Origin: Candidatus Multivoradales bacterium
GTDB taxonomy: Bacteria > Acidobacteriota > Thermoanaerobaculia > Multivoradales > J023
Assembly (NCBI GenBank): GCA_965248925.1
Contig: CBDFLE010000006.1
Span: 256,001-320,000 of the forward strand
Direction: 5' to 3'
Length of the DNA: 64,000 nucleotides
Part shown: in pieces, positions 28,399-54,172 of the stretch
Position numbering within the stretch: position 1 is the stretch's first letter
Layout: each line of letters starts with the position of its first letter
Made by a program: the position numbers and the translations under genes
The notes under the pieces: model-generated
What the model was told of the DNA's origin: nothing
The model's database searches: none
The model's input: only the letters and a program-made list of their open reading frames with translations

Positions 28399-28919
28399 TG
28401 GCGGCAGGGCCGGCGACCACCACTTCTTCACGTTCCGAGTCGCCAGCGAAAGTCTCAATGCCAGCAGTGGCGACAGGTCCGGCGACAGGAAGACCGCGGT
28501 GTTCGAGCCAAGGGAAGATCTAAATCTCAATGCCAGCAGTGGCGACAGGTCCGGCGACCCCAAGGCCTTCTCGCCATGCTCTCGACCCACCGAAAGTCTC
28601 AATGCCAGCAGTGGCGACAGGTCCGGCGACTCTGGGATCTGTATCGCTAGCTTGACTACAAGCACGTCTCAATGCCAGCAGTGGCGACAGGTCCGGCGAC
28701 AGTAACTGTAGCGCCGAATCGATCTGTGATTCACTTCGTCTCAATGCCAGCAGTGGCGACAGGTCCGGCGACTGTTTCAAACAACTTGCGAGCATTCCGT
28801 TACGGCGGCGGTCTCAATGCCAGCAGTGGCGACAGGTCCGGCGACTTCCGTACTGCTGATCGCCGACCATGGCGGGACTACAAGGTCTCAATGCCAGCAG
28901 TGGCGACAGGTCCGGCGAC
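28399..28919 (-). CRISPR. CRISPR array 1: 7 full 35-bp repeats (28452-28919) plus a degenerate trailer repeat
   Basis: Minus-strand repeat GTCGCCGGACCTGTCGCCACTGCTGGCATTGAGAC; 34-39-nt unique spacers; ATTGAGAC end and leader position give orientation. Confidence 0.97.
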
Positions 28920-29225
28920 ATCACCCAGTGGAAACCACGAGAAACAAGCGACTTATGACCCCCAATTCGACGGGTGATCGCAAACCACTGGCGATTACCC
29001 CGTTCTGACCCGATTCTGCTCCGAACCAAGCCTCGCAAACTATTGAATCCACAGCGCTTACCTCCTTCCTGCACATGATCATGTGCATCCTATCCGGCTA
29101 AGTCCTTTGTTCTCTGTCATCTGCGCTCCATTTACGCCTCCTTGTTGGCAATTTCTCCAACCACCCGTCGAAACGAGGGGATCCGCTACCTTCTCTCATC
29201 ACCCTCCGCCGATCCTCAGAGCACC
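28920..29225 (-). promoter_or_regulatory. CRISPR leader 1
   Basis: Non-coding, between cas2 and the array; matches 50526..50831 and resembles 55858..56163. Confidence 0.85.
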
Positions 29226-29519
29226 CTAGCGCACCCTCGCCAGCTCTTCGTCCGGTGGCTCGATATCACCAAAACCGACACTCTTCGCCGCGCAGCGAGA
29301 GCACACCCGGTACATCCGCACCGAGCCGTTCTCCTTGATTCGTAGAACCTTCTTCAGCCGATCCCTCAGCTTGGTCACATCAGCCTCCCGCAAGCGGCAT
29401 TCAAACACCGAGTACTGCACCCGCTCGCCCCAACCCTCGAGCACGTCCGCCACCCTACACCGCACTCGGTCCGAACGGATGTCATAGGTCACCAGCCACA
29501 AGTGAGCTGTCGCTGCCAT
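29226..29519 (-). CDS. cas2: CRISPR-associated endoribonuclease Cas2
   Basis: LVTYDI and GERVQYSVFEC motifs. Confidence 0.95.
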   Translation of the reverse strand: MAATAHLWLVTYDIRSDRVRCRVADVLEGWGERVQYSVFECRLREADVTKLRDRLKKVLRIKENGSVRMYRVCSRCAAKSVGFGDIEPPDEELARVR

Positions 29520-32392
29520 CACGCCGGCCTGACCAGCGGCCGATAGCTATCGAGACGGCCGAGGGCAATCTCACGCAGCGCGACCGCTTGCTCGAAAAGA
29601 AAGCCACGATACGAGACCGCCTCCTCGCTGCCCCGCGGGGTGAAGGTATCCAGCAATCGACGCTCGAAGGCCGTGAGATAACGCTTACGCAGATCGCGCG
29701 ACATCCACACGGCGCCACCAGGCTGTAGCTCGAAGTCTTCCTGCCTGGCCTCGCGGCGGCGCAGCAAGGCCAGCGCCAGGCCGTCGACCAACCAGCGGAA
29801 CTCCTCCTGGATATCCGACGCCAGCGAGGGATAGCGGTCACTCCGCTGGTGATAGATGCCGAGATGCGGATTCAGCCCGGCGCTGACCAGGGCGGTTGCG
29901 GCATGCTGAAATAGCAGGTGATAGCCGAAGGAAAGCAGACTGTTGACCGGATCGGTAGGCGGGCGGCGGCGCCGACCTGAAAACTCGAAGCCAGCTGGCA
30001 AGACCTCGGCAAAGCCGGCGAAATACAAGCGTGCCGCGCGTCCCTCCAAGCCGCGCAGGGTGCCGGTGTCGTCAGCCTCCAGCGCGCTCCGTGCCAGACT
30101 GCGGATGGGCCCGGTCACCCCGCGGCCAAGGCCCAGCCGGGCAAGCTGGCTAGCCTGGTTGCGCAGCTTGCCGGCGACAATCACCCGCGCCACGGCCAGG
30201 GCGCGGCGATCATCGGCGAGCAGCACAGCCTGCGCCTGCCAGATCCGCCAATCAGCCGCCGGTGCTGCCACGCCGGCGCGGATCCGGCCGCGAGCATCGC
30301 ACATATAGGTCGGTACGCCACCGATGGCCAGGCGCTCGACGGCGGTCAGAGTGGCCCGGCCGTGACCGAGAATCGTCAGATGCAGAATACCGGCCAGGGG
30401 CAGCCGCTCCCTGGGGCGCGACGGATGCTCGAGTACCAGGGTTTCCTTCTCCACCCGCATCGATGTTTCATGATCACCGAGATAGAGCGGACGCTTGGCC
30501 GGGAAGGCTTCGCGAGCCGGTCCCAGATCGATGTCCTCTAGCGGCGGCGGGCCGCCCTCGGCGCCGCTGCTCGGCCGGCCGAGGCGGCGCAAACGCTCGA
30601 AGGGTACCGCCGCCAGCCATGACATGGCCGGGGGAGGCACCTCTTCCTGTCGGCGCCCGCCATCGTGCTTCGCCTCGTCGATCACCAGCGAGCGACAGAA
30701 CAGATAGCCGAGATAGCCGAAGCCGTCGGCCATTGAGCGCACTGAGGTCTTGCCCTCGTGCAAGGCCAGGCCCAACTCGCCGAGGGCGCGCCGCGCGACT
30801 TGGTGGGCGCGCTCGGCGGCGGCCAGATCCTTGGTCAGCACTACGAAGTCGTCGGCAAAACGGACCAGACGAAAGCCCTCGCCGAGGATCGCTTCGTCAA
30901 AGCGATCCAGAAAGAGGTTGGCGAGCAGCGGTGAGATCGGCGCCCCCTGCGGCAGACCCCGACTACGGCCGATCCGCCGGCCGTCGAAGTAGACCGGCAC
31001 GGTAATCCAATGGCGAATCACCCGCACCAGCGGCTCGAAGGGGAAGAGCGCATCGAGCACCGCGAAGAGGCGATCCCATTCGACAGTGTCAAAGAACGCT
31101 TCGATATCGGCATCGAGCACATAGCGGTAGCCATCCTCCCAAGCTCGCTGAATGGCGCGCGCCGCGCCCTGCCGGGAGAAACCCCTGCGGTAGGCGAACG
31201 ACTCGTCCTCGAGCATCGAATCGATGGCCGGCAACAGCGCCTGGGCGGCGGCGCGCTGGAGCACCCGATCGGCCGCCGTCGGCACCGCCAGCGGCCGCCA
31301 GCCGCCAGACGGCTTGGGAATCGCGCAGCCGGCGAGAGGTTGCGCCCGGTAGCAGCCGTCGAGCAGCGACCCGGCCAGACTTGCGAGAGCTGGCGGCCCG
31401 AGGTCGGCGAGGGACTGTGGGGATTGGTGGTCAACACCCGCGGCCGACGATTGGGTGGCAACGTGTTCGAGTGCCGTGGCCAGCGCGGCCGGCCTGGCGA
31501 CTTCTTGCAAGTAAGTCCGTGCCGGCCGCCACGGCCCCTCACCGTCCGGGCTGCCGGCGAGGCGGAAGCGACCGAAGCCGTAGCGCACGCTCTGACCCAC
31601 ATGGAGATGCTGCAAGAGGGCCAGGAGAGCGCACCAGTCGGGGGTCAAGCCGGCCAGTTCGAGGGTGCCCACCAGCCCTCCCTTGAGCTGGCCTCGGGGC
31701 CGGCCCGGCTTGCCCCCCGGCCGGCCACGGGTGGGCACATCGAGCCACAGCAGAGCCGCCGGGTCGGCGCGGACGGCCGCTGGCATCGCCGGCACCGCCC
31801 CCGGCGACGGCCGCCCCGCCCGCAGGTCGGCAAAGCGCCGCCAGCAGCGGGCGAGGAATGCACCGGCAGGAAAGTAGGTGCTGTCGAAGTGGCCCTTGGG
31901 GCGCTGCCGCGCGCCCCGCGGACGCGGCCGACGGAGCTCCAGGGGAGAGAGGAACTGCAAGGTGGCCACCCCACGCTCGGCGAGTGCCCGCGCGGTGGCC
32001 TCGACATCGGCCAGCTCCGGCGCGCCCAGGCGTTGCACCTCCGCGACCGCAAAGTTGCCCCACAAGGTGCGTTCCGAAGCGGCCGGCCTGGGCTGTCGGC
32101 TCACCACTTCGAGTCTCTCCAGGGCAGCCGGCAGCGCATCGATCGCCTCGCCCACCACGGTCAGCCCGAAGACGTAGTCATCACCAGCGGCAAACCGCAC
32201 CCGCCCCGACTCGACCGCCGCCGGCATCACCTCCGGCAAGGCGTGGCCGAAGATCTGGCAGAGCAGGCCATGAAGCACCGGCTCGTGGCGCAGGTGGAAG
32301 CGGGTGCTGGCGCTCAGCCGCAGGCGGATGACCAGCCGCTCGATCGGCGGCAAGCTCAGCATCGAGCCGTCGGGCAGGCGATGGCGGGTCAT
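29519..32392 (-). CDS. cas1: Cas6-reverse transcriptase-Cas1 fusion, copy 1
   Basis: Cas6 G-loop HVGQSVRYGFG; RT motifs DADIEAFFD, GLPQGAPISPLLAN, RFADD; Cas1 motifs LEGRAARLYF, DPVNSLLSFGY, GIYH, SDIQEEFR. Confidence 0.93.
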   Translation of the reverse strand: MTRHRLPDGSMLSLPPIERLVIRLRLSASTRFHLRHEPVLHGLLCQIFGHALPEVMPAAVESGRVRFAAGDDYVFGLTVVGEAIDALPAALERLEVVSRQPRPAASERTLWGNFAVAEVQRLGAPELADVEATARALAERGVATLQFLSPLELRRPRPRGARQRPKGHFDSTYFPAGAFLARCWRRFADLRAGRPSPGAVPAMPAAVRADPAALLWLDVPTRGRPGGKPGRPRGQLKGGLVGTLELAGLTPDWCALLALLQHLHVGQSVRYGFGRFRLAGSPDGEGPWRPARTYLQEVARPAALATALEHVATQSSAAGVDHQSPQSLADLGPPALASLAGSLLDGCYRAQPLAGCAIPKPSGGWRPLAVPTAADRVLQRAAAQALLPAIDSMLEDESFAYRRGFSRQGAARAIQRAWEDGYRYVLDADIEAFFDTVEWDRLFAVLDALFPFEPLVRVIRHWITVPVYFDGRRIGRSRGLPQGAPISPLLANLFLDRFDEAILGEGFRLVRFADDFVVLTKDLAAAERAHQVARRALGELGLALHEGKTSVRSMADGFGYLGYLFCRSLVIDEAKHDGGRRQEEVPPPAMSWLAAVPFERLRRLGRPSSGAEGGPPPLEDIDLGPAREAFPAKRPLYLGDHETSMRVEKETLVLEHPSRPRERLPLAGILHLTILGHGRATLTAVERLAIGGVPTYMCDARGRIRAGVAAPAADWRIWQAQAVLLADDRRALAVARVIVAGKLRNQASQLARLGLGRGVTGPIRSLARSALEADDTGTLRGLEGRAARLYFAGFAEVLPAGFEFSGRRRRPPTDPVNSLLSFGYHLLFQHAATALVSAGLNPHLGIYHQRSDRYPSLASDIQEEFRWLVDGLALALLRRREARQEDFELQPGGAVWMSRDLRKRYLTAFERRLLDTFTPRGSEEAVSYRGFLFEQAVALREIALGRLDSYRPLVRPA

Positions 32393-32440
32393 GAATCCTC
32401 CTGGGTGCGCGGCCGACCGCCTCAGCTCTCGGCGATGGGT

Positions 32441-33010
32441 TCACGAATTCCGGTCCCGGCGCAAACTTGCCAGCTGCGCGCCTAGCTGGTTGAAACCAGC
32501 GGCGCCGGAGGGCGAATCTGCTGCACCTCGTCCTGGAGAGGCACCGGGGTTCGAAGGTGAACCTGGAGAGCCGCCCTGGCCGCCTTTCGGCGGGCGGGGA
32601 CGCCTCCTCTCGGCCTGCTCGGCCACCAACAGGCGGGCGGTCCAGCCCAAGATCCAGCGCCAGGTAGTGAGAGGGCGGTCAGGGTGCTCGTCCAGAGCTG
32701 CTGCCAACAAGGCTGCCAGGGTCGTGAGGTGTGCCATGACCTCGTGCTGATTCTGTGCCGTGGCTCGATCCAAAGCAGGAGCTGCCTTGAGAAAGAGGCG
32801 AAAGGAGGCGAGGTCAGGAGCTTGCCGCAGGTAGCCGAGGAAGGTCTCCAGGGTGCCGCGCTTGAAACCGGTCTGGCCCGGGCTGTGGGACGCTGGGTCA
32901 AGGCGCGGTATCGGCGTGGTGATCAGCTCAGCCGCCAGCTCAGCCGCTTCGCGAATCAGGGATTCTTTCTCCCTCGGGGTCAGCACGTCCAAACAATCGT
33001 GATCACTCAT
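32441..33010 (-). CDS. Cas-operon helical protein, possible second small subunit (Cas11-like)
   Basis: Translationally coupled to the RAMP gene; helical with ILGWTARLL; low-complexity tail. Confidence 0.55.
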   Translation of the reverse strand: MSDHDCLDVLTPREKESLIREAAELAAELITTPIPRLDPASHSPGQTGFKRGTLETFLGYLRQAPDLASFRLFLKAAPALDRATAQNQHEVMAHLTTLAALLAAALDEHPDRPLTTWRWILGWTARLLVAEQAERRRPRPPKGGQGGSPGSPSNPGASPGRGAADSPSGAAGFNQLGAQLASLRRDRNS

Positions 33011-33900
33011 CAGCCGCCCCCTGAAGTCCGTGGCAAGGACAACTCCGCCGCCAGGGTGGCGAGGGTGGCCGCCTGGCTCTGCTCCAGCCCACAACGGTGG
33101 ATGCAGTCCTCGACCAGCTGATTCACTTCCGCTGCGTCACCAGAAACCCAACAAGTCCCCTTGAGCCCGGTGTGCAGACGAAAGCCAACAGCGGTAATCC
33201 GGACTCTGCCCAAACCGTCGTATTTCGCTCCCCCCGGGCGCGGTGCGAAGCGGCCGATCCCGAGGCTGAGAAAGAGGGCACCGAGATCCTGACGAGACAC
33301 GTTGCGCAATCGCAGATCGGTATTCAGCACGGCGCCAGGCGGGATGGCAAAGGCCGGGATAACGCGAGGGGGCTGAGAATGGGCCGGCAGGTCGCCGTAG
33401 AGCCGATAGTAACCCCGAGTGGAGTTGCGGGGCGGGTAAGCTACCGAAATCGAAATCCGCTGGGCCACCAGGTCTCCGGCAGGAAACGCGTCGTCGAAGC
33501 TCACCCGGCCCATCAGACCGAGCCCACCAAAGAGACCGGCGGCCGGGGAGCACAAGCCGTACTTGGGAATATGTCCTTCCGCTGTCGCTTGCCGGCTGCC
33601 GGTCAGGGCTTCGAACATAGCGCGACAGGCGCCCTTGAGTCCCGAGCCGGGGAGGATCGGCACCCCACCCAGGCGCGCAATCTCCTTGACCGCCCGGCCA
33701 TCCTCCCCCAGGCTGAAGCCGCCCGAACCCACATGGACGGGGCCGAGGGCTTCGATCTCCAGGGTGACGGTACCCGAGCGTCGAGGAGCGTCCGCATCGC
33801 CCTGGGGCAGCCGGTCATGAAAGATCGGCTCCACCCTCGGGCCCGGTGGGGAACGGGGAATGGTGAAGTGATTGCGCGGCGGGCTGGGGGGTGTGAGCAT
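33010..33900 (-). CDS. RAMP (Cas7 group) subunit
   Basis: VHVGSG, LPGSGLKGACR, GRVSFDDA, GGAKYDGLG G-loop. Confidence 0.85.
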   Translation of the reverse strand: MLTPPSPPRNHFTIPRSPPGPRVEPIFHDRLPQGDADAPRRSGTVTLEIEALGPVHVGSGGFSLGEDGRAVKEIARLGGVPILPGSGLKGACRAMFEALTGSRQATAEGHIPKYGLCSPAAGLFGGLGLMGRVSFDDAFPAGDLVAQRISISVAYPPRNSTRGYYRLYGDLPAHSQPPRVIPAFAIPPGAVLNTDLRLRNVSRQDLGALFLSLGIGRFAPRPGGAKYDGLGRVRITAVGFRLHTGLKGTCWVSGDAAEVNQLVEDCIHRCGLEQSQAATLATLAAELSLPRTSGGG

Positions 33901-33916
33901 AGCCTCTCCTCATCAC

Positions 33917-34936
33917 TCAGGCATTGGTAGATCTGGCAAGAAAATGGTCAATAGCAGCGGGCAGTGCCTCCTCGATCAAGAGATCACCGACCCTAGCCAG
34001 CGAACTACCGCTGAGTTCTAGGCGACTGCCGCGCCAGGTCGGCTGCCGGGAGACATTCGCGGAAAGCTCCAGGGGGTCTTCGGCAACCAGACCGTACTCC
34101 CTGACCTCTCCACCACTGGCTAAGTTGGCAACGCCATGAAGCCATGGCGCGAGCCCCTCACCATCGCTGCCGGCAGCGGTCGCAGGTTGTACACTTTCAA
34201 AGCGCAGAGAACCGAGGCTTGCCCGCATCCTCCCGAGGCCGCGGGCCTTACCGAAACCGAGGCCGAAGTCCCCTTCGTCGAGAGCCCGCACCAGCACGAA
34301 GATCAAGGCCAGCTGCCAGAGCTGGATGTTGCGAAAAGGAATCTCGGCAAAGAAGCGCCCACCGGTGATCACCTCGATCTCGAACAGCCCACCGCTCTGC
34401 ACCGCCTGGCCGGTCTCACGATCGATGGCAACCTGGGTGCGACGCTCCGTCCGGTTGGCCACCACCGCGCCACGACGCATGGCCTCGGCATCGGCCAGCG
34501 GCTGCCAGGGGAATGCGTCCAGCACCGACATCCGGCCACTGACGGTCAACGAGCCAAAGGTGCGACACACCGGGCATTGGCGCTTGAAGATCGCCGAGGT
34601 GGGAGTCGTGTCGGGTCGTCCGGCACGTTTGCAACTGGGCCCCGCCGGCTGCCGGGCGCCACCGTGCGAGTTCCCCTTCTTCTGGTCCTTGGCGACCGGA
34701 TCGCAGACCGCCACACCCAGGCCGTAGAGTAGGCGCTCGGCATGGCTGCGCAGGGCGCCCTTGATGCCGGTTCCGGGAAAGAAAACGGTGTCACCCACCT
34801 CAGGATGGTAGGAGCGCACGAAGGCCATATCCGGTTGCGACGGGTCGACCGTCTCCCGACCGCTCTTGATCAGGGCGGCGCCCTGGGGGCTGAGCTCGAG
34901 CCGCAGGGTTCCATGGTTGAGCAAGCGTTTGAACAT
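33917..34936 (-). CDS. RAMP Cas7 (Csm3/Csx7-like) subunit
   Basis: PGTGIKGALRSHAE, CPVCRTFG, VAIDRETG, GFGKARGLG. Confidence 0.9.
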   Translation of the reverse strand: MFKRLLNHGTLRLELSPQGAALIKSGRETVDPSQPDMAFVRSYHPEVGDTVFFPGTGIKGALRSHAERLLYGLGVAVCDPVAKDQKKGNSHGGARQPAGPSCKRAGRPDTTPTSAIFKRQCPVCRTFGSLTVSGRMSVLDAFPWQPLADAEAMRRGAVVANRTERRTQVAIDRETGQAVQSGGLFEIEVITGGRFFAEIPFRNIQLWQLALIFVLVRALDEGDFGLGFGKARGLGRMRASLGSLRFESVQPATAAGSDGEGLAPWLHGVANLASGGEVREYGLVAEDPLELSANVSRQPTWRGSRLELSGSSLARVGDLLIEEALPAAIDHFLARSTNA

Positions 34937-35769
34937 CAGGAAATCTCCGGCGACGGGGGTTGGGGGGAGGACTCGGCTGCGAGGGCGTCGACCAGGGTCT
35001 GGGTGGCGATTTCCTGCGCCTCGGCCCAGTCGGTCTCGGTGAAGCCGCCTCTGGCCAGCAGAGCTTGTGCCGAGGTTTCTCCGAGCGTCGCCTGCTCGAG
35101 GTGTACCCGGCCCAGGCCGCGAGAGGTCATGCCACCGATCAGAATGACCCCCTCATCGAGCATCTCGAGGGTCTTTAGCACCAGCGCCACCTGGGTGCTA
35201 TTGCAATTCTCCAGCAGGATCTCGAGAGCGAAGGCGGCGCCCGGCGGCACCACCTCGGTGTCGTACTTGACCCGCGGCTGGGCGACCCCGAGATCGCGAT
35301 TGATACCGACACCGTCGCGCACCTCGGTGCGGAGCAGGGTGGCGGGCACCAGGGGCAGGTCGCGCACAAAGACCCGCCCGCCGATCATCGTCGAGCCAAA
35401 GAGACCGCAGGTGATGCAGACTGTGCGGCAGACCTCGTCGAGGCTGACGCTGTCGCGCTGCTGCTTCGCCCTGGTCTCCAGAGCCGAGGTGCAGCGGCCC
35501 TGCTCATCCAGCACATCGCAGGCGCGAAAGTTCCCTTGACCTAGCCCACGAATCACCCGCTCGAGACCGCTGCGCAGAGCCCCTTTGATCGCGCTGCCAG
35601 GGAGATAGGGACGGCCGAGGGCGTCGCGCATGATGGGCTGATCTGTAGCTTCCGGATCCTGGGCCTTGCCGGCCCCAACTCGGATGCCGGAGACCGCTAC
35701 CAGCCGGGCTCGAATGCGGTGCCGGCTGGTCAAGGCTGCAAAAGAGGTGAACTCGAGAAAGGGGCTCAT
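34936..35769 (-). CDS. RAMP Cas7 (Csm3/Csx7-like) subunit
   Basis: IRVGAG...TDQPI, PGSAIKGALRS, CITCGLFG, RDGVGINRD, GGMTSRGLG. Confidence 0.9.
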   Translation of the reverse strand: MSPFLEFTSFAALTSRHRIRARLVAVSGIRVGAGKAQDPEATDQPIMRDALGRPYLPGSAIKGALRSGLERVIRGLGQGNFRACDVLDEQGRCTSALETRAKQQRDSVSLDEVCRTVCITCGLFGSTMIGGRVFVRDLPLVPATLLRTEVRDGVGINRDLGVAQPRVKYDTEVVPPGAAFALEILLENCNSTQVALVLKTLEMLDEGVILIGGMTSRGLGRVHLEQATLGETSAQALLARGGFTETDWAEAQEIATQTLVDALAAESSPQPPSPEIS

Positions 35770-36350
35770 CGCCGACCTCCGCGGGGCCTCTGCCGGTGTT
35801 GGTTCCTGGGCCGGGTCGCCTTGATGCGCGCTGCGCTCCACTGCTCTTCTTTGAACCGTGCCACCTGATAGGTCTGCTCGCGGATGACGAATCCGATCAG
35901 CAGGGAGGCCAGCCGGCGGCCAGCCGCTTCCTGATCTTCGGCTTCGTCTTCGTCTTCGGTGGGGGCGCCGCCGAGCCGTTGCCGAACCTGCTTGTCGAGC
36001 AAACCGAGCAGTTCGTGGCCTGGGCCGGCATCGTGCCCCCAACCCCGGCTCCCGCGGCCGATCTGGTAGCGCAAGTAACTCTCGACCACGGCCAGCGGCT
36101 CATTTTGGGTGGTCGCCAGCAGGCTGCGAAGCTGCGAAGTAGTGACCCTTGGATCGGGGAATCGAGGGCGCCGCTGCGGATCCTCGCCCATGTTCATCCA
36201 TCTGGCAACTGCGTTAGCAAAGCGCTCCAAGAGCTTGCTGGAGGTTTGATCGGAAGGTTGATAGCTCTCTGACTTTTCAACGTAGGCTTGCGCGGCGACA
36301 ACCAGCGCGCTCTTCTGGGTTTCGATCCAGGCGAGGGATTCGGGGCTCAT
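35766..36350 (-). CDS. Cas11-like small subunit
   Basis: TTSQLRSLL and YLRYQIGR motifs; position between csx10 and cas7. Confidence 0.75.
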   Translation of the reverse strand: MSPESLAWIETQKSALVVAAQAYVEKSESYQPSDQTSSKLLERFANAVARWMNMGEDPQRRPRFPDPRVTTSQLRSLLATTQNEPLAVVESYLRYQIGRGSRGWGHDAGPGHELLGLLDKQVRQRLGGAPTEDEDEAEDQEAAGRRLASLLIGFVIREQTYQVARFKEEQWSAARIKATRPRNQHRQRPRGGRR

Positions 36351-38236
36351 TGTTCGGTCCTCCGGTCGGCCTTCCAGCCGGGTAGATGTAGATCGTCGGA
36401 AATGCGGACCCGGCCATAGCCCTGGGCGCGCTGACCGCCGAGCCCTCCGGACTCGATGGCCTCACACCGCGCGCGGTGTGAGGCGTCATCCGGCACCGCC
36501 AGAAGCAGGCAGGAGCCCACGCACACCACCGGTTCGAGATCCTTGAAACGGCCCGCCAAGGTGTCGAAGCCACCTCGCTGGTCAGCGCGGAGCGTCGCTG
36601 CCAGCAGCTCGGCGGCGGGCAGCTCGAGGGCCTGCAGGAAGGCCTGCAACACCGTCGTAGCTTGTGAGCCGGGGGCCAGGACCAGATCGTTCTCGAGGGT
36701 GACGGTGATCAGCAGTCGGCCGGGCCACGGCTCCTCCGCGGGTAGCTGACAAGTACTGCAGACCCGCCTCCAGGCTTGCCGCACGGCGGCATCCAGGGCC
36801 GCGAGGCGTGCATCGATCGAATCCTCGATCGCCGGCCGAACTCCGACCAGCTCAACTCGGCCGTAGCCTTGGCCACGACCGTGCCCGACCCGGATCACCC
36901 CCCGCTGAGCATCTTCGAGAAGCTGGCGTCCAGCAGCGTCCAGCCGGTCGACGCGGGCGCAGAAGCGGCTGCCGGGAGCAAGCAGGTCGAGGGAGAAGAG
37001 CTTGCCATCAACCCCCCGGCCACTGGCCACATCGAGGGCCAGGCGGGTGACCACCCGGCGCTCGGGCTCCACCGCATCCAGCCAACGGTCGACCGGCACC
37101 AGACGCGCGCCACAAGGCTGTCCCGCGGCCGGCGTGTGCCGACAGGTCTCGTCGAAGGCGCGATGGATACCGCGGTCGGCGAGCTGATTCTTGATCCAGC
37201 CCAGGATCAAGCGATCCATGCCACCGTGGGCCCAGCCTTCAAACTTGCAAACGCCAAGGGAGAGAGGTGCTGGCCGCGGCCGGCGGCGGTCTTCGCTATC
37301 GACGGCCACTCCATCGGCAAAGCGCAGGCAGGTCGATTCGTCGAGCAGCAGGCGGCGGAAGACCGGGTCTGCAGACTGATCCTCGGTAGTTCCGCGAGCC
37401 GTCATGGCGGCGGTCACCAGCGCGCCGCGCAGCGTCGAGGCGCGCACGAAGCCGAGACTGCGGTGGTAGTTGTTGGTGAGAAAGAGAGTATCGCCGAGAC
37501 AGAGGGGCTCTCTGGCCTCGAGGGTCAGCTCGAGTGAAGTGGCGTCGGGCAAAGGCAGGCTTGCCGGCATCTCGCCCCGGAACCTGGCGGCCGATACCGA
37601 CTCGAGGCGTATGCTCACCTGGCCGAGGCCCGCGGAACGACCGCCACCGATGGCGAAGACCGCTTCGGCCGCGGCCGCGAGACACTTGAGATCGTCGGCA
37701 CCATGCTCGGTATCGGCGAGCAGGTGGGTGACGTCGACCTCAGCGGTGAATGCCAGGCCATCGAGGAAGGGAGCGACCACCTGGCGGGCGAAGAGGTGGT
37801 GGTCCGCTGCTCGCCGGGAGCCGCGGCTCAGCGAGACCTGGTGGCGGGTTTCCAAGCCGCCACCGCGAGAGAACAAGTCGCGCAGGGCGGTGTCCTGCAA
37901 CAGCCCGTCGCTGATGTACACCCGGGTGGTGCCACCGCCAATGCGCTCGACCGAGGGCCCGCCACCCACCGCGGATGAACCCGCTGAGCTTGCCGTGCCG
38001 GCCGGCCCGGGCTCCTGGCCGAGGATCCGGCCGAGGGTCGCCCGCGCGGTCTCGGGCCTGACCGCCAGAAGCAGGCGGGTCAGCTGTTCGCGCAAAGCCC
38101 CATTGAGCGCCGTCGCCGGGATGAAGGGCACCCCCGCAGCGTCACGGGCGGTGGCGTCGTGAACCTCGGGCTGGGTAGTACCGCCGAGCAGCAACCCGCC
38201 GCGAGGCTCGACGATCAGACGATGGGTAATGCTCAT
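36347..38236 (-). CDS. csx10: Csx10-like multi-RAMP (Cas7-Cas5 fusion)
   Basis: Three G-loops (GGGRSAGLG, GHGRGQGYG, GGQRAQGYG); ATGA overlap with cas10. Confidence 0.8.
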   Translation of the reverse strand: MSITHRLIVEPRGGLLLGGTTQPEVHDATARDAAGVPFIPATALNGALREQLTRLLLAVRPETARATLGRILGQEPGPAGTASSAGSSAVGGGPSVERIGGGTTRVYISDGLLQDTALRDLFSRGGGLETRHQVSLSRGSRRAADHHLFARQVVAPFLDGLAFTAEVDVTHLLADTEHGADDLKCLAAAAEAVFAIGGGRSAGLGQVSIRLESVSAARFRGEMPASLPLPDATSLELTLEAREPLCLGDTLFLTNNYHRSLGFVRASTLRGALVTAAMTARGTTEDQSADPVFRRLLLDESTCLRFADGVAVDSEDRRRPRPAPLSLGVCKFEGWAHGGMDRLILGWIKNQLADRGIHRAFDETCRHTPAAGQPCGARLVPVDRWLDAVEPERRVVTRLALDVASGRGVDGKLFSLDLLAPGSRFCARVDRLDAAGRQLLEDAQRGVIRVGHGRGQGYGRVELVGVRPAIEDSIDARLAALDAAVRQAWRRVCSTCQLPAEEPWPGRLLITVTLENDLVLAPGSQATTVLQAFLQALELPAAELLAATLRADQRGGFDTLAGRFKDLEPVVCVGSCLLLAVPDDASHRARCEAIESGGLGGQRAQGYGRVRISDDLHLPGWKADRRTEQ

Positions 38237-40101
38237 CTGCGATTCTCCGTTGCGCCGCCCATGAGGGAGCACAGCTCGATGGCATCGAGAAAATCCGTGC
38301 ACTTTCGGCCACCGCGCTCCTGCCACAGAAGCTCGTCGACGGTGGCCAGCTTCGGTTGACCCACCGCGCAGCGGAAAGCGGCCCATCCGAGCCGCTGGGA
38401 CTTGTCCTTGGCGCGGGCGTTTTGGTAGCGAAAGAAGCTCTGGCTCTCCCAATACCCGGTCTGGATGGCCCTGGCGACGGCGTGGATTTGGCTGCTGCCA
38501 ACATGCATGTGGAGGGCTTCGGCCCGCTGTGCCAACTCTTGGAACTCGGCAAAGCTGTAGGGCCGGAGAGTCAGCAACAGAGCGGGTTCGGGACTTGGAG
38601 GCTGAGCCGCGGAGCGCTCGAAGTGGGCGGCTCGCAAGGTCCGAATCGAGCCGTTGAGCGGGTTACCCGAGCGCAGCACCATGAAATCGACCGCACTGCG
38701 GATCGGCTGGCTCTCGACCTCGCGGCCCTCGCCATCGCCACGGCTCAAACCGCTGGCGTCGGTACTCTGGTGGATGCGCGCCTTGGCGTTCTTGAGCAGC
38801 TCGCGGGCATAGCCGAGGAGGATGCGGTCAGGAAACTTGTCATCGGCAATGGCCACCCCCACGCCGACACCGAACCGCTCCACCGCCTGGCGCAGGCCGG
38901 AGCTGCAAGACAAGACACTCCGCAAGAGCTGATTGTGGTCGGGGGAGAGGTGCTTCTCAAGCGCCGGGACCAGGGCGCAGATGAACCGGCTGGCATGGCG
39001 GGCGGAGAGCAGGACGACCAGGTCGTCGCCGCCGCGAATCGGCGCTTGGTAACGCCCTTCCTCGATGCCGCAGACCCGTACAGCCGCGGCCAGCGCCCGC
39101 TCGAAGGCGGACTCCACCGCCAGACTCAGGGCTCGATGCTGGGCGGGTGAGCCGACCCGGGAGAAGGACTGGCCAAAGTTGGCCCCATCGGCATAGACCA
39201 GGGCCAACATGGGATCGGTCTCCTGCTCGGCGAAGAGATCGTGCGAAGTTCGCGCCTGCTCGACCTCGCGGCGCAGCCGGCCGGCGGCCTGGCCGCGGGA
39301 TAGGCAGGGGGCGCAAACCTCCTCCCGCTGCTCGCCCCGTCGCCGGGGCGTGGTCGCGGGCCGCTCACCACAGGCCTGGCAGCGCTCACGCTGACGAGTG
39401 GCGGGGATCCTCGGCGGCAAGCGCAGGATGTCGGCACGGCGCCGGTCGAGCCTGGCGAAGAGTGCCGCCAGCACCGCCGGATAACCGCGGGACGGGCTCG
39501 GCACATCCCACTCCCCCACCCCCTCACCCACCGGGTCGCCGCCGACCTCGCCGGTTCCTTCTTCCTCCTCGAGGTCGCTGGGCCAGACCTCGAGTGCGGT
39601 GGCGGCGGTGACCAGGTCTCCATGGGTGGCCCGCTCAAGGGCCGCCTCAAGAGGCGCGATGACCGCTCGAGCACGGTGAGCCGGGGTCAACACCAGGCCG
39701 CCACCTGCGCCGCCGTAGACCTCTGCCAGCGGGGAGATCCCCTGGTCGCGCAGGATCGAGCTTGAGGAAGCTACCCCGCGAGTGCGTTTCTCATCGCTTG
39801 AGCCGTCTTCTCCGCGGGTCAGGTCGGCAACAACATTGCTACCCCCTTGTCGGTCACCGGGACGGGCGACTTTGAAGACATAGTGCTGGATGCCCGGGGT
39901 GTCGAAAGCGACCAGAGCCAACGGCGGCTGCTCGCCAAACAGCTGGCGAAGACGGCCGTGATCTCGGTCCTCGAGTGCCTTCAACACCTCGCTGACATCC
40001 GTGGCCCGGGCCGCCGCCTCCTGCTCGAGACAGAGGCGCATGCCGCCTGCGAGGTCAGCTTCGATCCGTTCGAATGAGTCTTGGGTCACGTTACTCTCCA
40101 C
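38233..40101 (-). CDS. cas10: Cas10 lacking an HD domain, with intact GGDD palm
   Basis: DTPGIQHYVF, CxxC...CxxC zinc finger, YADGANFG, RGGDDL; only about 620 aa. Confidence 0.92.
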   Translation of the reverse strand: MESNVTQDSFERIEADLAGGMRLCLEQEAAARATDVSEVLKALEDRDHGRLRQLFGEQPPLALVAFDTPGIQHYVFKVARPGDRQGGSNVVADLTRGEDGSSDEKRTRGVASSSSILRDQGISPLAEVYGGAGGGLVLTPAHRARAVIAPLEAALERATHGDLVTAATALEVWPSDLEEEEGTGEVGGDPVGEGVGEWDVPSPSRGYPAVLAALFARLDRRRADILRLPPRIPATRQRERCQACGERPATTPRRRGEQREEVCAPCLSRGQAAGRLRREVEQARTSHDLFAEQETDPMLALVYADGANFGQSFSRVGSPAQHRALSLAVESAFERALAAAVRVCGIEEGRYQAPIRGGDDLVVLLSARHASRFICALVPALEKHLSPDHNQLLRSVLSCSSGLRQAVERFGVGVGVAIADDKFPDRILLGYARELLKNAKARIHQSTDASGLSRGDGEGREVESQPIRSAVDFMVLRSGNPLNGSIRTLRAAHFERSAAQPPSPEPALLLTLRPYSFAEFQELAQRAEALHMHVGSSQIHAVARAIQTGYWESQSFFRYQNARAKDKSQRLGWAAFRCAVGQPKLATVDELLWQERGGRKCTDFLDAIELCSLMGGATENRR

Positions 40102-40137
40102 AATCTGGCAGGCCGGCCGCCGTCGCGTTGGCAGTGC

Positions 40138-40560
40138 CTACGCCGGCCGAGTCTTGTTGGTCAAGTGCGGCGATTCGGGGCCCATCCATTCGCCTGTAGC
40201 AACCCAGATCTCGAAGTAGTAGAGCCACATTGCGGTCCAAGGGACGATCGATTCTGAGAGCTTCTTCGAGGGGGACCACCGCCAGTCCTTTGGCCAGTAC
40301 AAGCAAAGACTGCGGTCGCCGTAGATGTGTGGCGTAGCCGGCGGAAAGGAGAATCTTGGTAGAGTCACCTTGGGCGATTTCCCGCGGTTGTGCTCAATCC
40401 TCACCTGATACGAAGGGGACAGCTCAGTAGGTTGAAGATGTCCCGACCACGAAAGACCGCTCTTACGATTTGGGCGTCCTTCAAACTGCGGAAAGTGTTG
40501 CCACATGGAGGCGATCTGGTGCGAAGGGTTGTCATCTGAGGTTCTCCGGACGCGGCTCAA
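40138..40560 (-). CDS. Short E2 (ubiquitin-conjugating-like) protein of CBASS
   Basis: PHIYGDRSLCLYWP, IVPWTAMWLYYFEIW and TGEWMGPESPH pattern; overlaps the CD-NTase stop. Confidence 0.8.
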   Translation of the reverse strand: MSRVRRTSDDNPSHQIASMWQHFPQFEGRPNRKSGLSWSGHLQPTELSPSYQVRIEHNRGKSPKVTLPRFSFPPATPHIYGDRSLCLYWPKDWRWSPSKKLSESIVPWTAMWLYYFEIWVATGEWMGPESPHLTNKTRPA

Positions 40561-41597
40561 GGTCTGTCTCCATGAAAGCGCGTTGCAGTTGTCGAGATGC
40601 CATCCGGCCGGTCGGTAACTAAACCGGCTGGCGAAACATACGCCGCGCCGAGACTCCTCCCACTTGCCTCAAGGCTGGCGTGGCTCTTGACCTCTTCGTC
40701 CGTAGGCCAATGATCACCAAAAAGCGCTGACCAGCTGTCGATAGCCTCGTCCCGCTCACCGTCTACAGCCTTCCTGGCCTTCTTCGCCGCCTCTCGAATT
40801 CTGCGCATGAATGTCTCGAAGTGGCTTCTTTCCCAGCCAGTAGTGACAATGGCTCCCGTTTGAGGGTCAGGGATACGAGGAACGCCGATACCACTATCCA
40901 TGGGCTCTTCGTACTTCTCAGCGATATGTTCGAAGAAGCACATGAGAACCGTGTCGAGACCGTGACCTTCTGTCTCAATCGCTGCTGAGTCGATGGACTT
41001 GAAAGCCATGATCTCGAGAACATAACTCTTGATCCTACGATGCTTCATCTGGACATCACGCCACGACTTCAGCAGCTTGATGAGGCGAATCAAGTTGCCC
41101 TGGCTCTTTGCGTTGAGCGTCGAAAGACTCCTGGCGTATCCCAACGGATCAGAAACCAACCATTCTTCCTTTTTCCGATCCGGAATCTTTAGAGCTTTTT
41201 CAAGTCCGTTGGGAGCTACCGCCGGCACAATGTCCAGATGCACTTCCGGGTCTTCGAAGCAAAGGTGAATAGAGCGCCTTTGCGGTGATGCCTCGGCGGT
41301 CGCATCGGGATAGTCATCGAGAGCCTTCTTCAGCTCTCGCAGCACCGATTCTGGCGTTCGTTCGAGCGTCGCATCGTCATAGAACAGGAGTGTGTCAATA
41401 TCTTTGATGTCGAGGATCGCGGTTGACCGACTGTACGAACCGATGAGACGGGAATATGGGGCTACGGTCGTGAGATCGTCTCTCTCTTCGAGCCAGTCCC
41501 GAACTTGCGCGGGAAGCTCTCTTGCGTGTCTTGCTCGTTCGACAGATGGATTAACATTGTGCAGAAGTGCTGCGAAGTGTCTTGGGAGATTTGGCAT
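40557..41597 (-). CDS. CD-NTase (cGAS/DncV-like, SMODS nucleotidyltransferase)
   Basis: GSYSRSTAILDIKDID, LDIVPA, SDPLGY, IKLLKSWRD; C-terminal RFHGDRP. Confidence 0.9.
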   Translation of the reverse strand: MPNLPRHFAALLHNVNPSVERARHARELPAQVRDWLEERDDLTTVAPYSRLIGSYSRSTAILDIKDIDTLLFYDDATLERTPESVLRELKKALDDYPDATAEASPQRRSIHLCFEDPEVHLDIVPAVAPNGLEKALKIPDRKKEEWLVSDPLGYARSLSTLNAKSQGNLIRLIKLLKSWRDVQMKHRRIKSYVLEIMAFKSIDSAAIETEGHGLDTVLMCFFEHIAEKYEEPMDSGIGVPRIPDPQTGAIVTTGWERSHFETFMRRIREAAKKARKAVDGERDEAIDSWSALFGDHWPTDEEVKSHASLEASGRSLGAAYVSPAGLVTDRPDGISTTATRFHGDRP

Positions 41598-41669
41598 GAT
41601 GACTAGGTTGGTCCCCTTGATGTTGGTCGTTAGGCCGAGGAGTGTTGAGGGTTCAACAGTTCTGGTGAA

Positions 41670-43613
41670 TCACACTGTGCCACCCATCGCCGGCGAGACC
41701 AGGGTGATCGACCGCTCATAGCTCTTGTGCCCCTGTTTCTCGAAAGCGTATTCATACATCTGCACCCTGCCCAGGGTGTGGCTCAGCCGGCCAAGGGCCA
41801 AGGATAGTCCGATTGGCCCGGCAAGGAAAATGTGTGCTGTGTGGTGGTCGGAGGTCAGGCCGTCGATCCGAGCGATGAGCTGTTCGGCGAGAGCGCGGGC
41901 ATGGCCACCACCTTCGACGCCGGCCTGATCGGGTGTCTCGAAGCAGGCGTAGATCACCTTATTGACAACAGGTGGATCGAGGTCTTCGCGCTTCAAGTAG
42001 GCAGCGACCTTGTCGAGAATCGAGCGCGACATCTCAATGACGATGGCAATGTCCTCGGATGCCGGGTCGAGAGGAAAATCGTCAGTGATCCGCGCCTGAG
42101 ACGCGCCGGAATCCAGCCACTTGGGAGCGTTCGGCGGCTTGGGATCGCTGAAACGCCAGAGCTCACCGCTCTGGGTCATAGTGATCTCGCGCCAATCTTT
42201 GGCTGGTAGCAAAAAACCGGCCGTGAATCCGACGCTGAGCGGCGCGGTGATGGTGAAGTGGCAGGGGCTGGTCTGCGGCAGCTTTCTTTCCACCGTATCC
42301 CGTAGGGCATCCAAGATGGGGCCATTCCAGTAACAGGGGTCACGGACAAAACGCCCGTTGAAGTATTCCTCGAGATCGATCTCGTAGTCGCTCTGCTTGA
42401 CCGCGTGCTTGCCGCGGTCCCGGGTGTTGAAGATGGCGATCTTCTTTGCCGGGACCGCCGCGAAGTCTAGGTTGAGTACCCTGCCGTCTTTTGAGCGCAA
42501 GAAGAGGACGGGGGTTGACCGTTCTAGCTCGCCACTGGCCCCCTTGCGGTCGATGGCGAGCCGGCCTTCCGTAACGGCATCGTCGATCAGCGCATTGCGA
42601 TCGAGAGCGGCATAGAAGTCTCTGGTAAAGGCAGCTGCGGCATTTTCGGAGATGCTGAACTGCATGGCGACCACCGCCGGAACGCGGCGCGCGACCAACG
42701 CCGAGGCGACGCCGGCGAACGGATGATGTCCCTTGGCGTCGGCAGTCGGAATACAGCCAGTCGAGCACGAAGCAAGGGTAACCAGGCGCACGCTGTGGGG
42801 GATCTGGCGGGCCAGATCCTCTGCCGATACGAGGTGCTCGCTACCGTCCTCGCGTTCGAGAAAGAGGGCGCCGTCGCCCTCGGAGTTGAACCCACCGTGA
42901 CAGAGAATGTGCAGCGCGTGGTAAGGAACTAGATGTGCCTCGGCATCGACTAGCTCTTGGCGGAGAGCGTCGAGAGTTGGTTCCTCCAGCAGCCGGAGCT
43001 GCAGATATCGCGCCGAGCGAATCGCGTCTTTCAACACTTTCCTATGCCACGCTTTGTCAAACTTGCTGTAGCGATGACCGGGAGAGGTCTCAGGGTTCGG
43101 CGAGGCCACCAGACCGAGAATCTTGAGCGTTGGCGCCACGTCGAGGGCGGCGATCTTGTCGGGCAGGTCGAGATAGCGGGCGATGGGGGTCTCCCGCTCG
43201 CAACCGATGAAGCGAGCGGTGCCCGGATTGTAGAGCAGCTCCCAGGGCAGGCTGCCCAGAGCATGATTGTAGGGCTGGCCGAAGCTGAGGCGAAGTCGCA
43301 AGCCCTGGCCGGAGCCGAGCGCCGCCTCGCTCTGTTGAAAGGTCTTGCCGACTGCTCCGGAGAACAGGGTGTTGTAGAGCGCGGTGCCGATCTTCCGCGC
43401 CAACTCACGCCGCCGTGACGCGTGCTGATCACCCTGAATGAGCAGGCTCTCAAATTCCTGGACCCATGCTTCGATCGCGACCTGGTCGGCCGCGCGCATT
43501 GTAAAGCGAGCACGAGGTCGGTCTCGGGGCGATTCGAGTACTCGGATCTCCGGTTTCTGGCAGCAACACTGTCCGAGCTCGATCTCAAAATCTTGATAGC
43601 TAACTGTGCTCAT
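41670..43613 (-). CDS. CHAT (caspase-like protease)-SAVED fusion effector
   Basis: LPWELL, HILCHGG and LASCSTG dyad, VVAMQF; SAVED halves IDLEEYFNGR...APLSVGFTAG and HIFLAGPIGLSLALG...VQMYEY. Confidence 0.88.
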   Translation of the reverse strand: MSTVSYQDFEIELGQCCCQKPEIRVLESPRDRPRARFTMRAADQVAIEAWVQEFESLLIQGDQHASRRRELARKIGTALYNTLFSGAVGKTFQQSEAALGSGQGLRLRLSFGQPYNHALGSLPWELLYNPGTARFIGCERETPIARYLDLPDKIAALDVAPTLKILGLVASPNPETSPGHRYSKFDKAWHRKVLKDAIRSARYLQLRLLEEPTLDALRQELVDAEAHLVPYHALHILCHGGFNSEGDGALFLEREDGSEHLVSAEDLARQIPHSVRLVTLASCSTGCIPTADAKGHHPFAGVASALVARRVPAVVAMQFSISENAAAAFTRDFYAALDRNALIDDAVTEGRLAIDRKGASGELERSTPVLFLRSKDGRVLNLDFAAVPAKKIAIFNTRDRGKHAVKQSDYEIDLEEYFNGRFVRDPCYWNGPILDALRDTVERKLPQTSPCHFTITAPLSVGFTAGFLLPAKDWREITMTQSGELWRFSDPKPPNAPKWLDSGASQARITDDFPLDPASEDIAIVIEMSRSILDKVAAYLKREDLDPPVVNKVIYACFETPDQAGVEGGGHARALAEQLIARIDGLTSDHHTAHIFLAGPIGLSLALGRLSHTLGRVQMYEYAFEKQGHKSYERSITLVSPAMGGTV

Positions 43614-43743
43614 GCTTGAATCCCTGTCTAGAGGTATGACCGTAGGAAAGTTGATGGCAAGTGCCGCACGGGTGTCGAGACCTGCTCGCTAGCAGCCGGC
43701 GCCTCCCGAGAGTGGTTCTCGGGAGAGCTGCCTGATGCTTCAG

Positions 43744-44088
43744 TCAAGAGGTTGATTTCTTGGCTGTAGCACGAAGACCGCTCTTTGGCGGCGTAGGGTT
43801 GGCCGTGCCGTCGTCGTGACTCTTTTGCTGCCCCGGCATGGCTTCCACACCGAGGCCCGGCCGGGGACGATCCTTGGGTGCTGCCGGAAAGCTGTCATCG
43901 CCAGCGGCTGGTGCGTGCTTGCTGGTGGCACGGAGCGAGTTCGCTCCCTTGGGCTTGTCCTGACGTTCAGTTCCGCTGTCAGGCGCGCGGTCAGCGGCTG
44001 ACGGGTCAGAACTCGGGTCGGCAGCGGAGGTCGTTGGGGAAGAGCTGCTGGACGGCTTCTGCTGCGGGGCTTCGTGCATCTGGATCAC
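43744..44088 (-). CDS. Small low-complexity hypothetical protein
   Basis: 114-aa ORF preceded by AAGGAG; Ser/Pro/Ala rich. Confidence 0.4.
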   Translation of the reverse strand: MIQMHEAPQQKPSSSSSPTTSAADPSSDPSAADRAPDSGTERQDKPKGANSLRATSKHAPAAGDDSFPAAPKDRPRPGLGVEAMPGQQKSHDDGTANPTPPKSGLRATAKKSTS

Positions 44089-44214
44089 TCCTTGCTTGGG
44101 GGTAGACGGCGGTCTGGGCGGGTAAGGCTGCGGTGCCTCGCCGCCGCCCCTCTGACTGCTTCGGAGTGTTGGTTCCCGCTGCGCGAGACTTCTAGGAAGA
44201 AAGTTCGAGAAAGG

Positions 44215-47457: not shown

Positions 47458-47458
47458 C

Positions 47459-48310: not shown

Positions 48311-48320
48311 AGGTCAAATC

Positions 48321-53998: not shown

Positions 53999-54172
53999 GA
54001 ATCCTCCTGGGTGCGCGGCCGCCCTGCCGGCCAGGCTGCAAGTGGCATCTTCCAGCCTTCTGGGCACTTTCTTGTCCTGGCTGGCTGGCCAAAATCCTCA
54101 AGCCCATGCCCAAGGCGCGTGCTTCGGCGATTGTCCGCAGTGTCATATGCAATGTCATTTGAAATCAGCATT

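Follow-up and report, generated by a model that had tools for sequence, protein, structure and literature searches.

A CD-NTase-E2 gene pair, apparently inserted between a CHAT-SAVED effector and cas10, in a type III-D CRISPR island of Thermoanaerobaculia

Introduction

Defence islands of the kind described here are already in print: the CBASS-CRISPR-Cas island of Myxococcus xanthus and the type III-B/CBASS hybrid of Haliangium ochraceum are both precedents. In this work we analyze such an island in a 64,000-nucleotide stretch of DNA, referred to as the window, from a Candidatus Multivoradales bacterium (Acidobacteriota, Thermoanaerobaculia; GenBank assembly GCA_965248925.1, contig CBDFLE010000006.1, positions 256,001 to 320,000 of the forward strand). 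Here the CD-NTase cyclase gene of an antiphage signaling system based on cyclic oligonucleotides (CBASS) and an E2 accessory gene lie between the gene for a predicted caspase-like effector, CHAT-SAVED, and cas10 of a type III-D CRISPR (clusters of regularly interspaced short palindromic repeats) operon.

In M. xanthus, the "CBASS-CRISPR-Cas island" under DdvS/DdvA control (Bernal-Bernal et al., Sci Adv 2024, PMC11506125; NAR 2018, PMC6061681) contains a CD-NTase with an effector carrying CHAT at its N-terminus and SAVED at its C-terminus, a second CD-NTase with E1/E2 and JAB proteins, and a type III-B system. The window locus shares with it a sigma factor of the extracytoplasmic function (ECF) type, a putative zinc-finger membrane anti-sigma factor, a probably exported TPR-CHAT protein (periplasmic in M. 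xanthus), an N-CHAT/C-SAVED protein beside a CD-NTase, and a ubiquitin-like CBASS set. It differs in being type III-D rather than III-B, in encoding anti-sigma factor and TPR-CHAT as two genes instead of one protein, in having a single CD-NTase with an E2-only accessory in contrast to the two M. xanthus cyclases, of which one comes with E1/E2 and JAB, and in placing the cyclase within the cas operon, in the interval from effector to cas10. This comparison rests on the parts list, the sequence-level likeness being confined to weak or fold-level matches to DdvA, such as the one to 8rot found in a Foldseek search with CHAT-SAVED. The main text of the M. xanthus paper makes no mention of Cas10 or of a shared effector (PMC11506125).

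In H. ochraceum, a SAVED-CHAT protease that senses cyclic oligoadenylate serves a type III-B system and is activated by cyclic tri-adenylate (cA3) (Steens et al., bioRxiv 2023 / Science 2024). As in the window, this protease module shows kinship with CBASS effectors, and a sigma factor is found in the neighborhood. The loci described by Steens et al. had type III genes or CD-NTases, whereas the window has both in one operon. The domain order also differs: the Haliangium protein has its CHAT domain at the C-terminus, with a His375/Cys422 dyad, while the window protein has SAVED at the C-terminus and a His239/Cys283 dyad. Sequence comparison of CHAT-SAVED with the Haliangium structure (8tl0) gave no match, since phmmer against the PDB returned Cap4 only, and Foldseek ranked 8tl0 38 and 50, behind Cap4 and Csx29. 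The Haliangium partners PCaspase, PCi and PCk were not identified at the window locus, where no search with a PCaspase sequence was made.

Other described systems resemble parts of the locus. As in short type II CBASS, the CD-NTase and E2 genes overlap at start and stop, and a Gly motif is conserved in the tail of the CD-NTase. As in CdnD-Cap4 systems, the cyclase is nearest the cA3-making CdnD of Bacillus cereus and the SAVED domain is nearest Cap4; in the window, however, the fusion partner of the sensor is a CHAT protease and not a nuclease, and the effector descends from a CRISPR locus. Finally, CalpL-CalpT-CalpS and the type III-E Craspase (Csx29-Csx30-sigma) likewise pair a type III-linked protease with a nearby sigma/anti-sigma pair. 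They differ in that the protease in the window is CHAT-SAVED, not Lon-SAVED or the gRAMP-bound Csx29, that the anti-sigma factor is of a predicted membrane-bound zinc-finger type, and that TPR-CHAT is apparently exported.

Results

Gene order around the CD-NTase-E2 pair

Genes were called by Pfam, PADLOC and NCBIfam, and window coordinates are used throughout. The window is high in GC (62.5% in the genome), and a run of minus-strand genes spans roughly 28.4 kb to 55.9 kb of it. From the effector gene downstream, the run reads as follows:

41670-43613, minus strand: CHAT-SAVED effector (CHAT plus SAVED by Pfam, PADLOC and NCBIfam)
40557-41597, minus strand: CD-NTase (SMODS, E 4.8e-18; PADLOC cyclase model, 3.5e-59)
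40138-40560, minus strand: E2-only CBASS accessory (PADLOC E2, 9.5e-40)
38233-40101, minus strand: Cas10 without HD domain, with GGDD and a zinc finger (PADLOC, 3.3e-37)
about 36347-38230, minus strand: fusion of a Csx7-like Cas7 to Csx10, the Cas5 of type III-D (PADLOC Cas5_IIId, 4.3e-26, and Csm3)
35766-36350, minus strand: Cas11/Csm2-like small subunit (PADLOC Csm2 (CAS-III-D), 6e-10)
34936-36042, 33917-34936 and 33010-33900, minus strand: three Cas7/Csm3-family RAMP genes (Pfam, PADLOC)
32441-33094, minus strand: conserved open reading frame (ORF) of 217 aa that closes the series of III-D effector genes, no family match
29519-32392, minus strand: Cas6-RT-Cas1 fusion, RT being reverse transcriptase (Pfam, NCBIfam)
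29226-29522, minus strand: Cas2 (Pfam, NCBIfam)
28452-28919: CRISPR array 1, with 7 repeats of 35 nt

Taken together, the three resources confirm the order given in the original prediction, a reading of the sequence alone: CHAT-SAVED, CD-NTase and E2, then 36 bp, then cas10 through Cas6-RT-Cas1, cas2 and an array. The csx10 gene named in that prediction is present as well, although it is actually a Csx7-like RAMP fused to Csx10. The gaps flanking the CD-NTase-E2 pair are short, 72 bp to CHAT-SAVED and 36 bp to cas10, and no terminator-like site was found in either; the start of E2 overlaps the stop of CD-NTase. The E2-cas10 junction is also covered by a 404-nt contig (98% identical) from a run of a different study, so that it cannot be ascribed to faulty assembly of a single sample.

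CHAT-SAVED groups with the type III genes

CHAT-SAVED is a predicted caspase-like protease with a C-terminal SAVED sensor. Its CHAT (residues 74-356, E 2.9e-25) and SAVED (435-638, E 1.2e-20) domains both exceed the Pfam cut-offs, and the putative dyad, His239/Cys283, is invariant in 26 homologues. An AlphaFold2 (AF2) model has a pLDDT of 86, and its best Foldseek matches are Cap4 for the SAVED half and Csx29/DdvA for the CHAT half. The SAVED domain is nearest Cap4 both in sequence (phmmer against the PDB, E 1.4e-9) and in fold (Foldseek, E 4e-14).

To place this protein, CHAT-SAVED loci elsewhere were retrieved with a profile built from 26 family members, and searches of related genomes added more, giving 25 non-duplicate loci. 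Counts refer to the stretches in hand, two of which are contigs shorter than 8 kb; neighborhoods were called by phmmer with proteins of the window and genome and with one custom CD-NTase hidden Markov model, so that divergent cas or cyclase genes may have been missed. Nine of the loci are type III-D, seven III-B and one has Cas1/Cas2/Cas6 only; the others comprise one with CBASS only, five with no cas gene seen and the two short contigs. In four (L005, L006, L008 and L118) cas10 directly follows CHAT-SAVED, and in two (L010 and L116) cmr1 does. L010 (16888-18396) and L116 (17191-18471) also have a second, shorter SAVED ORF after cmr6, besides the CHAT-SAVED gene at the operon head.

These neighborhoods bear on the central claim of the original prediction, that CHAT-SAVED, CD-NTase and E2 form a three-gene CBASS cassette built into a type III operon. 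The comparison does not uphold this: CHAT-SAVED falls on the CRISPR side, because the nearest cas operons keep it before cas10 without CD-NTase or E2, and only CD-NTase and E2 appear to have been added. The same prediction had looked to close cas operons lacking the cassette as evidence against itself; L005, L006, L008 and L118 do lack CD-NTase and E2, but all retain CHAT-SAVED before cas10. The order in L005 (sigma-region ORF, anti-sigma, TPR-CHAT, CHAT-SAVED, Cas10, Cas7-Csx10, Cas11, three Cas7 genes, the 217-aa ORF and Cas6-RT-Cas1) is that of the window minus CD-NTase and E2, and in a maximum-likelihood tree the window CHAT-SAVED joins the cyclase-free L005 and L006 with 100% SH-aLRT support.

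Base composition points the same way. GC content at third codon positions (GC3) is 0.573 for CD-NTase and 0.688 for E2, versus 0.728 for CHAT-SAVED and 0.72-0.80 for the cas genes; the earlier remark that the CBASS genes are less GC-rich thus holds for CD-NTase and E2 and fails for CHAT-SAVED. Import of the SAVED half together with the cyclase was considered and rejected, as GC3 is 0.728 in each half of CHAT-SAVED. A SAVED swap is also contradicted by the identity to the L005 protein, 53% for the SAVED part against 49-50% for the whole protein.

The rest of the genome contains no other SMODS match and one other SAVED match, a CHAT-SAVED paralogue that is 28% identical over its full length and has the same domain order. 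The paralogue adjoins Cas6, Cmr1-6, a TM-CARF (Cam1-like) gene, RT, Cas1 and Cas2 in a III-B locus (L004, G000:C6:4114000-4133999). A CARF effector encoded elsewhere in the genome, an eventuality that the original prediction had raised, is therefore present beside this III-B locus. L004 also has a TPR-CHAT gene at one end; shortly past the other end come a gene for an ECF sigma factor and an ORF resembling an anti-sigma factor. Overall, sequence composition, phylogeny and gene order identify CHAT-SAVED as native to the type III side, and loci of this III-D/III-B clade usually carry it as their ancillary effector gene.

CD-NTase and E2 appear as an added pair

By the same evidence, CD-NTase and E2 (40138-41597) form an inserted, compositionally foreign pair between CHAT-SAVED and cas10, in the orientation of the operon. 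The pair came without an effector of its own, the neighboring CHAT-SAVED grouping with the type III locus both in base composition and in phylogeny. CD-NTase scores 66.3 bits against the SMODS model (cut-off 26.5), and its alignment with a family of 243 proteins covers the whole length, the closest member being 65% identical. In an alignment with B. cereus CdnD its active-site motifs IGSY, DID and LDIV line up, and its C-terminus bears the (F/Y)HG motif conserved in the family, here FHG plus three residues. In E2, Cys86 lies within PH.Y...LCL and is invariant in a three-sequence alignment; we take it to be the catalytic cysteine. A search of the genome found no E1-E2 or JAB match near the locus.

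No close CD-NTase was found among 60 relatives. Matches to the CD-NTase occurred in two of 400 other genomes in a phylum sample. One is L128, the nearest CD-NTase context retrieved, a 4.3-kb contig from a member of the phylum with a 58% identical CD-NTase, an E2 and no cas genes; the other, L129, is an ordinary CBASS (35%). Downstream of the CD-NTase-E2 pair, L128 encodes a DUF6602 protein (1694-2503; Pfam, 7.2e-28) that may be the effector of that system. A metagenome scan with the CD-NTase returned a single distant locus, a canonical type II CBASS (L127, 28% identical).

Cyclase genes recur beside CHAT-SAVED and type III genes

Three of the eight SMODS places in 61 related genomes lie in CHAT-SAVED/type III islands. 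The L111 island reads CHAT-SAVED, sigma, anti-sigma, TPR-CHAT, CD-NTase, E1-E2, JAB, Cas6, Cmr1, Cas10, Cmr3, Cmr4. In L108, E1-E2 and CD-NTase diverge from CHAT-SAVED, sigma, an anti-sigma-like ORF and TPR-CHAT, with Cas10 and Cas7-Csx10 6 kb further along. L009 has a 260-aa ORF with a weak SMODS match (28.3 bits, cut-off 26.5) after CHAT-SAVED and next to a III-B operon. The cyclases of these islands are about 32% identical to the window CD-NTase, their accessory sets differ, and their CHAT-SAVED genes fall in other clades of the tree than that of the window. Given these different cyclases, accessory sets and clades, it follows that cyclases joined such islands more than once.

The type III-D module has one detected sensor

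Cas10 has its GGDD motif within RGGDDLVV (Pfam Cas10-Cmr2_palm2, 31 bits, cut-off 27), and a palm-1-like stretch begins near residue 63, which therefore leaves no room for an HD domain; both points agree with the earlier description of a GGDD Cas10 without HD nuclease. Csx10 matches its NCBIfam model at 6.2e-24, under the equivalog cut-off, and in the Cas6-RT-Cas1 fusion the Pfam score of the Cas6 domain, 24.3 bits, falls below the cut-off of 25. Homologues of the 217-aa ORF, for which no match was found in Pfam, PADLOC or NCBIfam, occupy the same position in L005, L008, L107 and L110. Models for CARF, Csm6, NucC and ring nucleases gave zero matches among the locus ORFs tested, as the original prediction had supposed, and CHAT-SAVED is the sole cyclic-nucleotide sensor detected in the operon.

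A sigma, putative anti-sigma and TPR-CHAT trio lies upstream

Upstream of CHAT-SAVED are three genes that the original prediction overlooked, as it did the second adaptation module and the two further arrays described below, and one short ORF:

48321-48989, minus strand: ECF sigma factor (222 aa in the longest ORF, the real start being possibly further in; Pfam, NCBIfam and PDB matches)
47459-48310, minus strand: putative zinc-finger membrane anti-sigma factor (HxxxCxxC, hydrophobic segment; family matches below cut-off)
44215-47688, minus strand: TPR-CHAT protein, probably an exported lipoprotein (1157 aa; Pfam CHAT, 5.4e-59, and TPR_12)
43744-44088, minus strand: low-complexity ORF of 114 aa, probably no gene (Ser/Pro/Ala-rich, no family match)

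The last of these lies in the 600-bp gap (43614-44214) that separates TPR-CHAT from CHAT-SAVED. The sigma factor matches Sigma70_r2 (6.5e-10) and r4_2 (1.5e-8) in Pfam and sigma70-ECF in NCBIfam (56.5 bits, cut-off 42.9), and its PDB matches are ECF sigma factors. A 266-aa ORF at 48220-49020 was rejected as a gene, since it overlaps the sigma gene in the wrong frame. The anti-sigma ORF combines an N-terminal HxxxCxxC motif with a hydrophobic segment around residues 120-137, and its C-terminal domain measures about 145 aa. When the motif was aligned to the N-terminal domain of DdvA (8rlz), the match was not significant (E 1.2). Among the orthologous ORFs of 10 loci, the window included, H...C..C is present in six and a hydrophobic segment passes a crude threshold in eight; the segment in the window falls under that threshold and was read by eye.

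TPR-CHAT is a separate gene with an export-like signal of its own, not part of the anti-sigma protein. Around residues 85-112 of its longest ORF it has an Arg-rich n-region, a hydrophobic core and a lipobox-like LSAC motif, and an N-terminal hydrophobic segment, mostly followed by Cys, occurs in 10 of 14 orthologous ORFs; the protein is probably an exported lipoprotein. We considered TPR-CHAT as a PCaspase-like substrate and dropped the idea given the export signal and the DdvA precedent. By analogy, the sigma factor, anti-sigma factor and TPR-CHAT are likely a split DdvS/DdvA-like regulator module. Of the 25 CHAT-SAVED loci, 16 contain a TPR-CHAT homologue; a sigma gene was detected in 10 of these and an anti-sigma gene in 10. 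The 16 include four loci in which no cas or cyclase gene was seen (L075, L115, L124 and L125), the first of them without a sigma match. TPR-CHAT paralogues number 22 in the genome. At least 10 have an ECF sigma gene no more than 3 kb away, and four from this subset, counting that of the window, are also accompanied by an anti-sigma-like ORF. The trio therefore seems to be a general type of regulator that was recruited here.

An exact 11-mer, GGGAACCAACA, which holds an ECF -35-like GGAAC, occurs on the minus strand at 44167-44177, upstream of CHAT-SAVED, and at 49102-49112, upstream of the sigma gene. The 8-Mb genome has eight exact copies, and a rough estimate puts the chance of an 11-mer shared between both regions at about 0.06. 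The 11-mer was not conserved in the loci of relatives. We regard the two copies as possible sigma-dependent promoters. A predicted complex of CHAT-SAVED with anti-sigma residues 1-125 scored 0.00 with controls that did not fold, and the result counts neither way on binding.

Adaptation modules and flanking features

Beyond the sigma gene, the window contains further adaptation genes and arrays:

49993-50525: CRISPR array 2, with 8 repeats
50832-51128: second cas2
51125-54067: second cas6-RT-cas1
54383-55857: CRISPR array 3, with 21 repeats

One 35-nt repeat is common to all arrays, with 36 matches in the window against 0 expected by chance. Positions 28525-32421 and 50138-54028 form a 3.9-kb direct duplication of 97.1% identity that covers the array end, leader, cas2 and cas6-RT-cas1. 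The two adaptation modules flank a 17.7-kb block, from the sigma gene through the cas7 genes, and array 3 lies outside it. Beyond array 3 are two copies of a 797-aa transposase gene (56394-58787 and 61530-63923; Pfam Transposase_29 and HTH). Two tRNA genes with equal Rfam scores lie on the minus strand at 4980-5053 and 5822-5895, 842 bp apart.

Discussion

A possible common signal for two cyclases

The nearest solved relative of the window CD-NTase is B. cereus CdnD (9sa4, E 4e-26), followed by the CdnD proteins of P. aeruginosa and E. cloacae and by E. coli CdnC. According to the report on 9sa4, B. cereus CdnD makes 3'3'3'-cA3, which activates Cap4 and the CRISPR-associated NucC, and an Asn or Gln in the XGSX motif is tied to cAAG (PMC13424991). 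The XGSX motif of the window protein is IGSY, with Ile rather than Asn or Gln. Given these analogies and the activation of Haliangium SAVED-CHAT by cA3, a cyclic tri-adenylate common to both cyclases is the most economical guess and a plausible one.

Convergence of the two cyclases on one effector is likewise plausible. It gains indirect support in that CHAT-SAVED is the only sensor found in the operon, serves type III loci that lack a cyclase, and is joined by CD-NTase sets repeatedly. In our proposal, a III-D system forms the core of a defence island that is linked to an ECF sigma factor and resembles the DdvS/DdvA island of Myxococcus, and two cyclases feed one protease. Binding of target RNA by the CRISPR RNA (crRNA) complex would lead the HD-less Cas10 to make a cyclic oligoadenylate, most likely cA3. 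Infection sensed without a spacer would lead CD-NTase to make a cyclic trinucleotide, with E2 restraining or priming the cyclase through its conserved C-terminal FHG motif. The signal from either source could bind the Cap4-like SAVED domain, upon which CHAT-SAVED would oligomerize and its His239/Cys283 protease would switch on; cleavage of proteins of the cell or of the regulator might then halt infection. The sigma/anti-sigma/TPR-CHAT trio, as a split envelope sensor, may turn on transcription of the island. Taken as a whole chain, we consider this proposal about evenly balanced between being right and being wrong.

Several observations weigh against it. The CD-NTase ends in FHGDRP and not in Gly, so that E2 action would need trimming or some other chemistry. 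Its low GC3 fits a recent arrival, perhaps one unproven by selection, and the searches yielded no close relative that carries this insertion. Identity to CdnD and Cap4 amounts to 15-30%. Both of these families change ligand specificity easily. The anti-sigma call draws on matches below cut-off (Pfam zf-HC2, E 0.011; NCBIfam antisigma, 4e-6), and the tie of the trio to the island is one of conserved neighborhood only. Finally, the remaining five of the eight SMODS places among related genomes stand alone as ordinary loci, and clustering of defence genes is general.

Alternative explanations

The most serious alternative is that CD-NTase and E2 are a passenger, a chance fragment of short type II CBASS that is silent, decaying or makes a nucleotide to which CHAT-SAVED is blind, in an island that is otherwise a plain III-D system with CHAT-SAVED. 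The foreign GC3 of the pair, its absence from the nearest cas operons, the stand-alone SMODS places and the failure to retrieve the exact arrangement a second time from the metagenome scan or the phylum sample would all fit a passenger. Yet both ORFs are full length with intact active-site and tail motifs, and the insertion keeps the orientation and tight spacing of the operon. The pair also arrived without its own effector, other CD-NTase sets independently joined CHAT-SAVED/type III islands, and the E2-cas10 junction recurs in the sample of a second study. We consider a passenger insertion possible but unlikely.

A second alternative concerns what the protease does. CHAT-SAVED could act in the manner of CalpL, with the cytoplasmic part of the anti-sigma factor as its chief substrate; a nucleotide from either cyclase would then free the ECF sigma factor for a defence regulon instead of setting off broad proteolysis, which would place the trio downstream of the signal. 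The frequent company of TPR-CHAT, sigma and anti-sigma genes with CHAT-SAVED, including in the four loci free of cas and cyclase genes, is consistent with such an output, for which CalpL-CalpT-CalpS and Csx29-Csx30-sigma are analogues. However, the M. xanthus sigma/anti-sigma pair was shown to act upstream, driving expression of the island (PMC11506125), and TPR-CHAT, being apparently exported, is therefore no CHAT-SAVED substrate; we judge a CalpL-like output improbable.

That CHAT-SAVED, CD-NTase and E2 arrived as one CBASS unit ahead of an effectorless type III operon is highly improbable. In its favor, these genes lie side by side in one orientation, the M. xanthus combination of a CD-NTase and an N-CHAT/C-SAVED protein is termed type I CBASS (PMC11506125), and one locus, L126, pairs a related SAVED effector with CBASS genes only. 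Against it, the GC3 of CHAT-SAVED matches the cas genes and not the cyclase, its closest relatives directly precede cas10 with no cyclase, and the second CHAT-SAVED of the genome serves a III-B locus while no other CD-NTase is present.

Returning to two cyclases that share one effector, the recurrent islands suggest a broader form of the proposal, in which the type III loci of this lineage repeatedly captured CBASS cyclases and so equipped their protease with an additional trigger that needs no spacer, both kinds of cyclase feed a cA3-type signal to CHAT-SAVED, and the effector may in addition free the ECF sigma factor in a feed-forward loop. We offer this broader form tentatively, as a conjecture that falls short of probable.

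Relation to published work and significance

Relative to the two precedents, what is new here is the III-D context, the position of a cyclase and E2 within one apparent operon, where they part the effector from cas10, and the split regulator. Also new is the comparative evidence, drawn from gene neighborhoods, that type III loci of Thermoanaerobaculia commonly have CHAT-SAVED as an ancillary gene and that cyclases were added to it repeatedly. We found no paper testing whether a CD-NTase and Cas10 share an effector, in a literature search that left about 1.7 million PMC articles and supplements outside its scope.

For annotation, CHAT-SAVED with sigma, anti-sigma and TPR-CHAT can be treated as a widespread type III ancillary module in Thermoanaerobaculia. 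The compact operon, with three signaling genes beside cas10, offers a simpler test bed than the M. xanthus island of the same logic. If the proposed convergence is true, the locus would be a natural merger of innate (CBASS) and adaptive (CRISPR) sensing at the level of the second messenger, in which known phages would be met via spacers and unknown phages via CD-NTase, at the cost of one effector gene.

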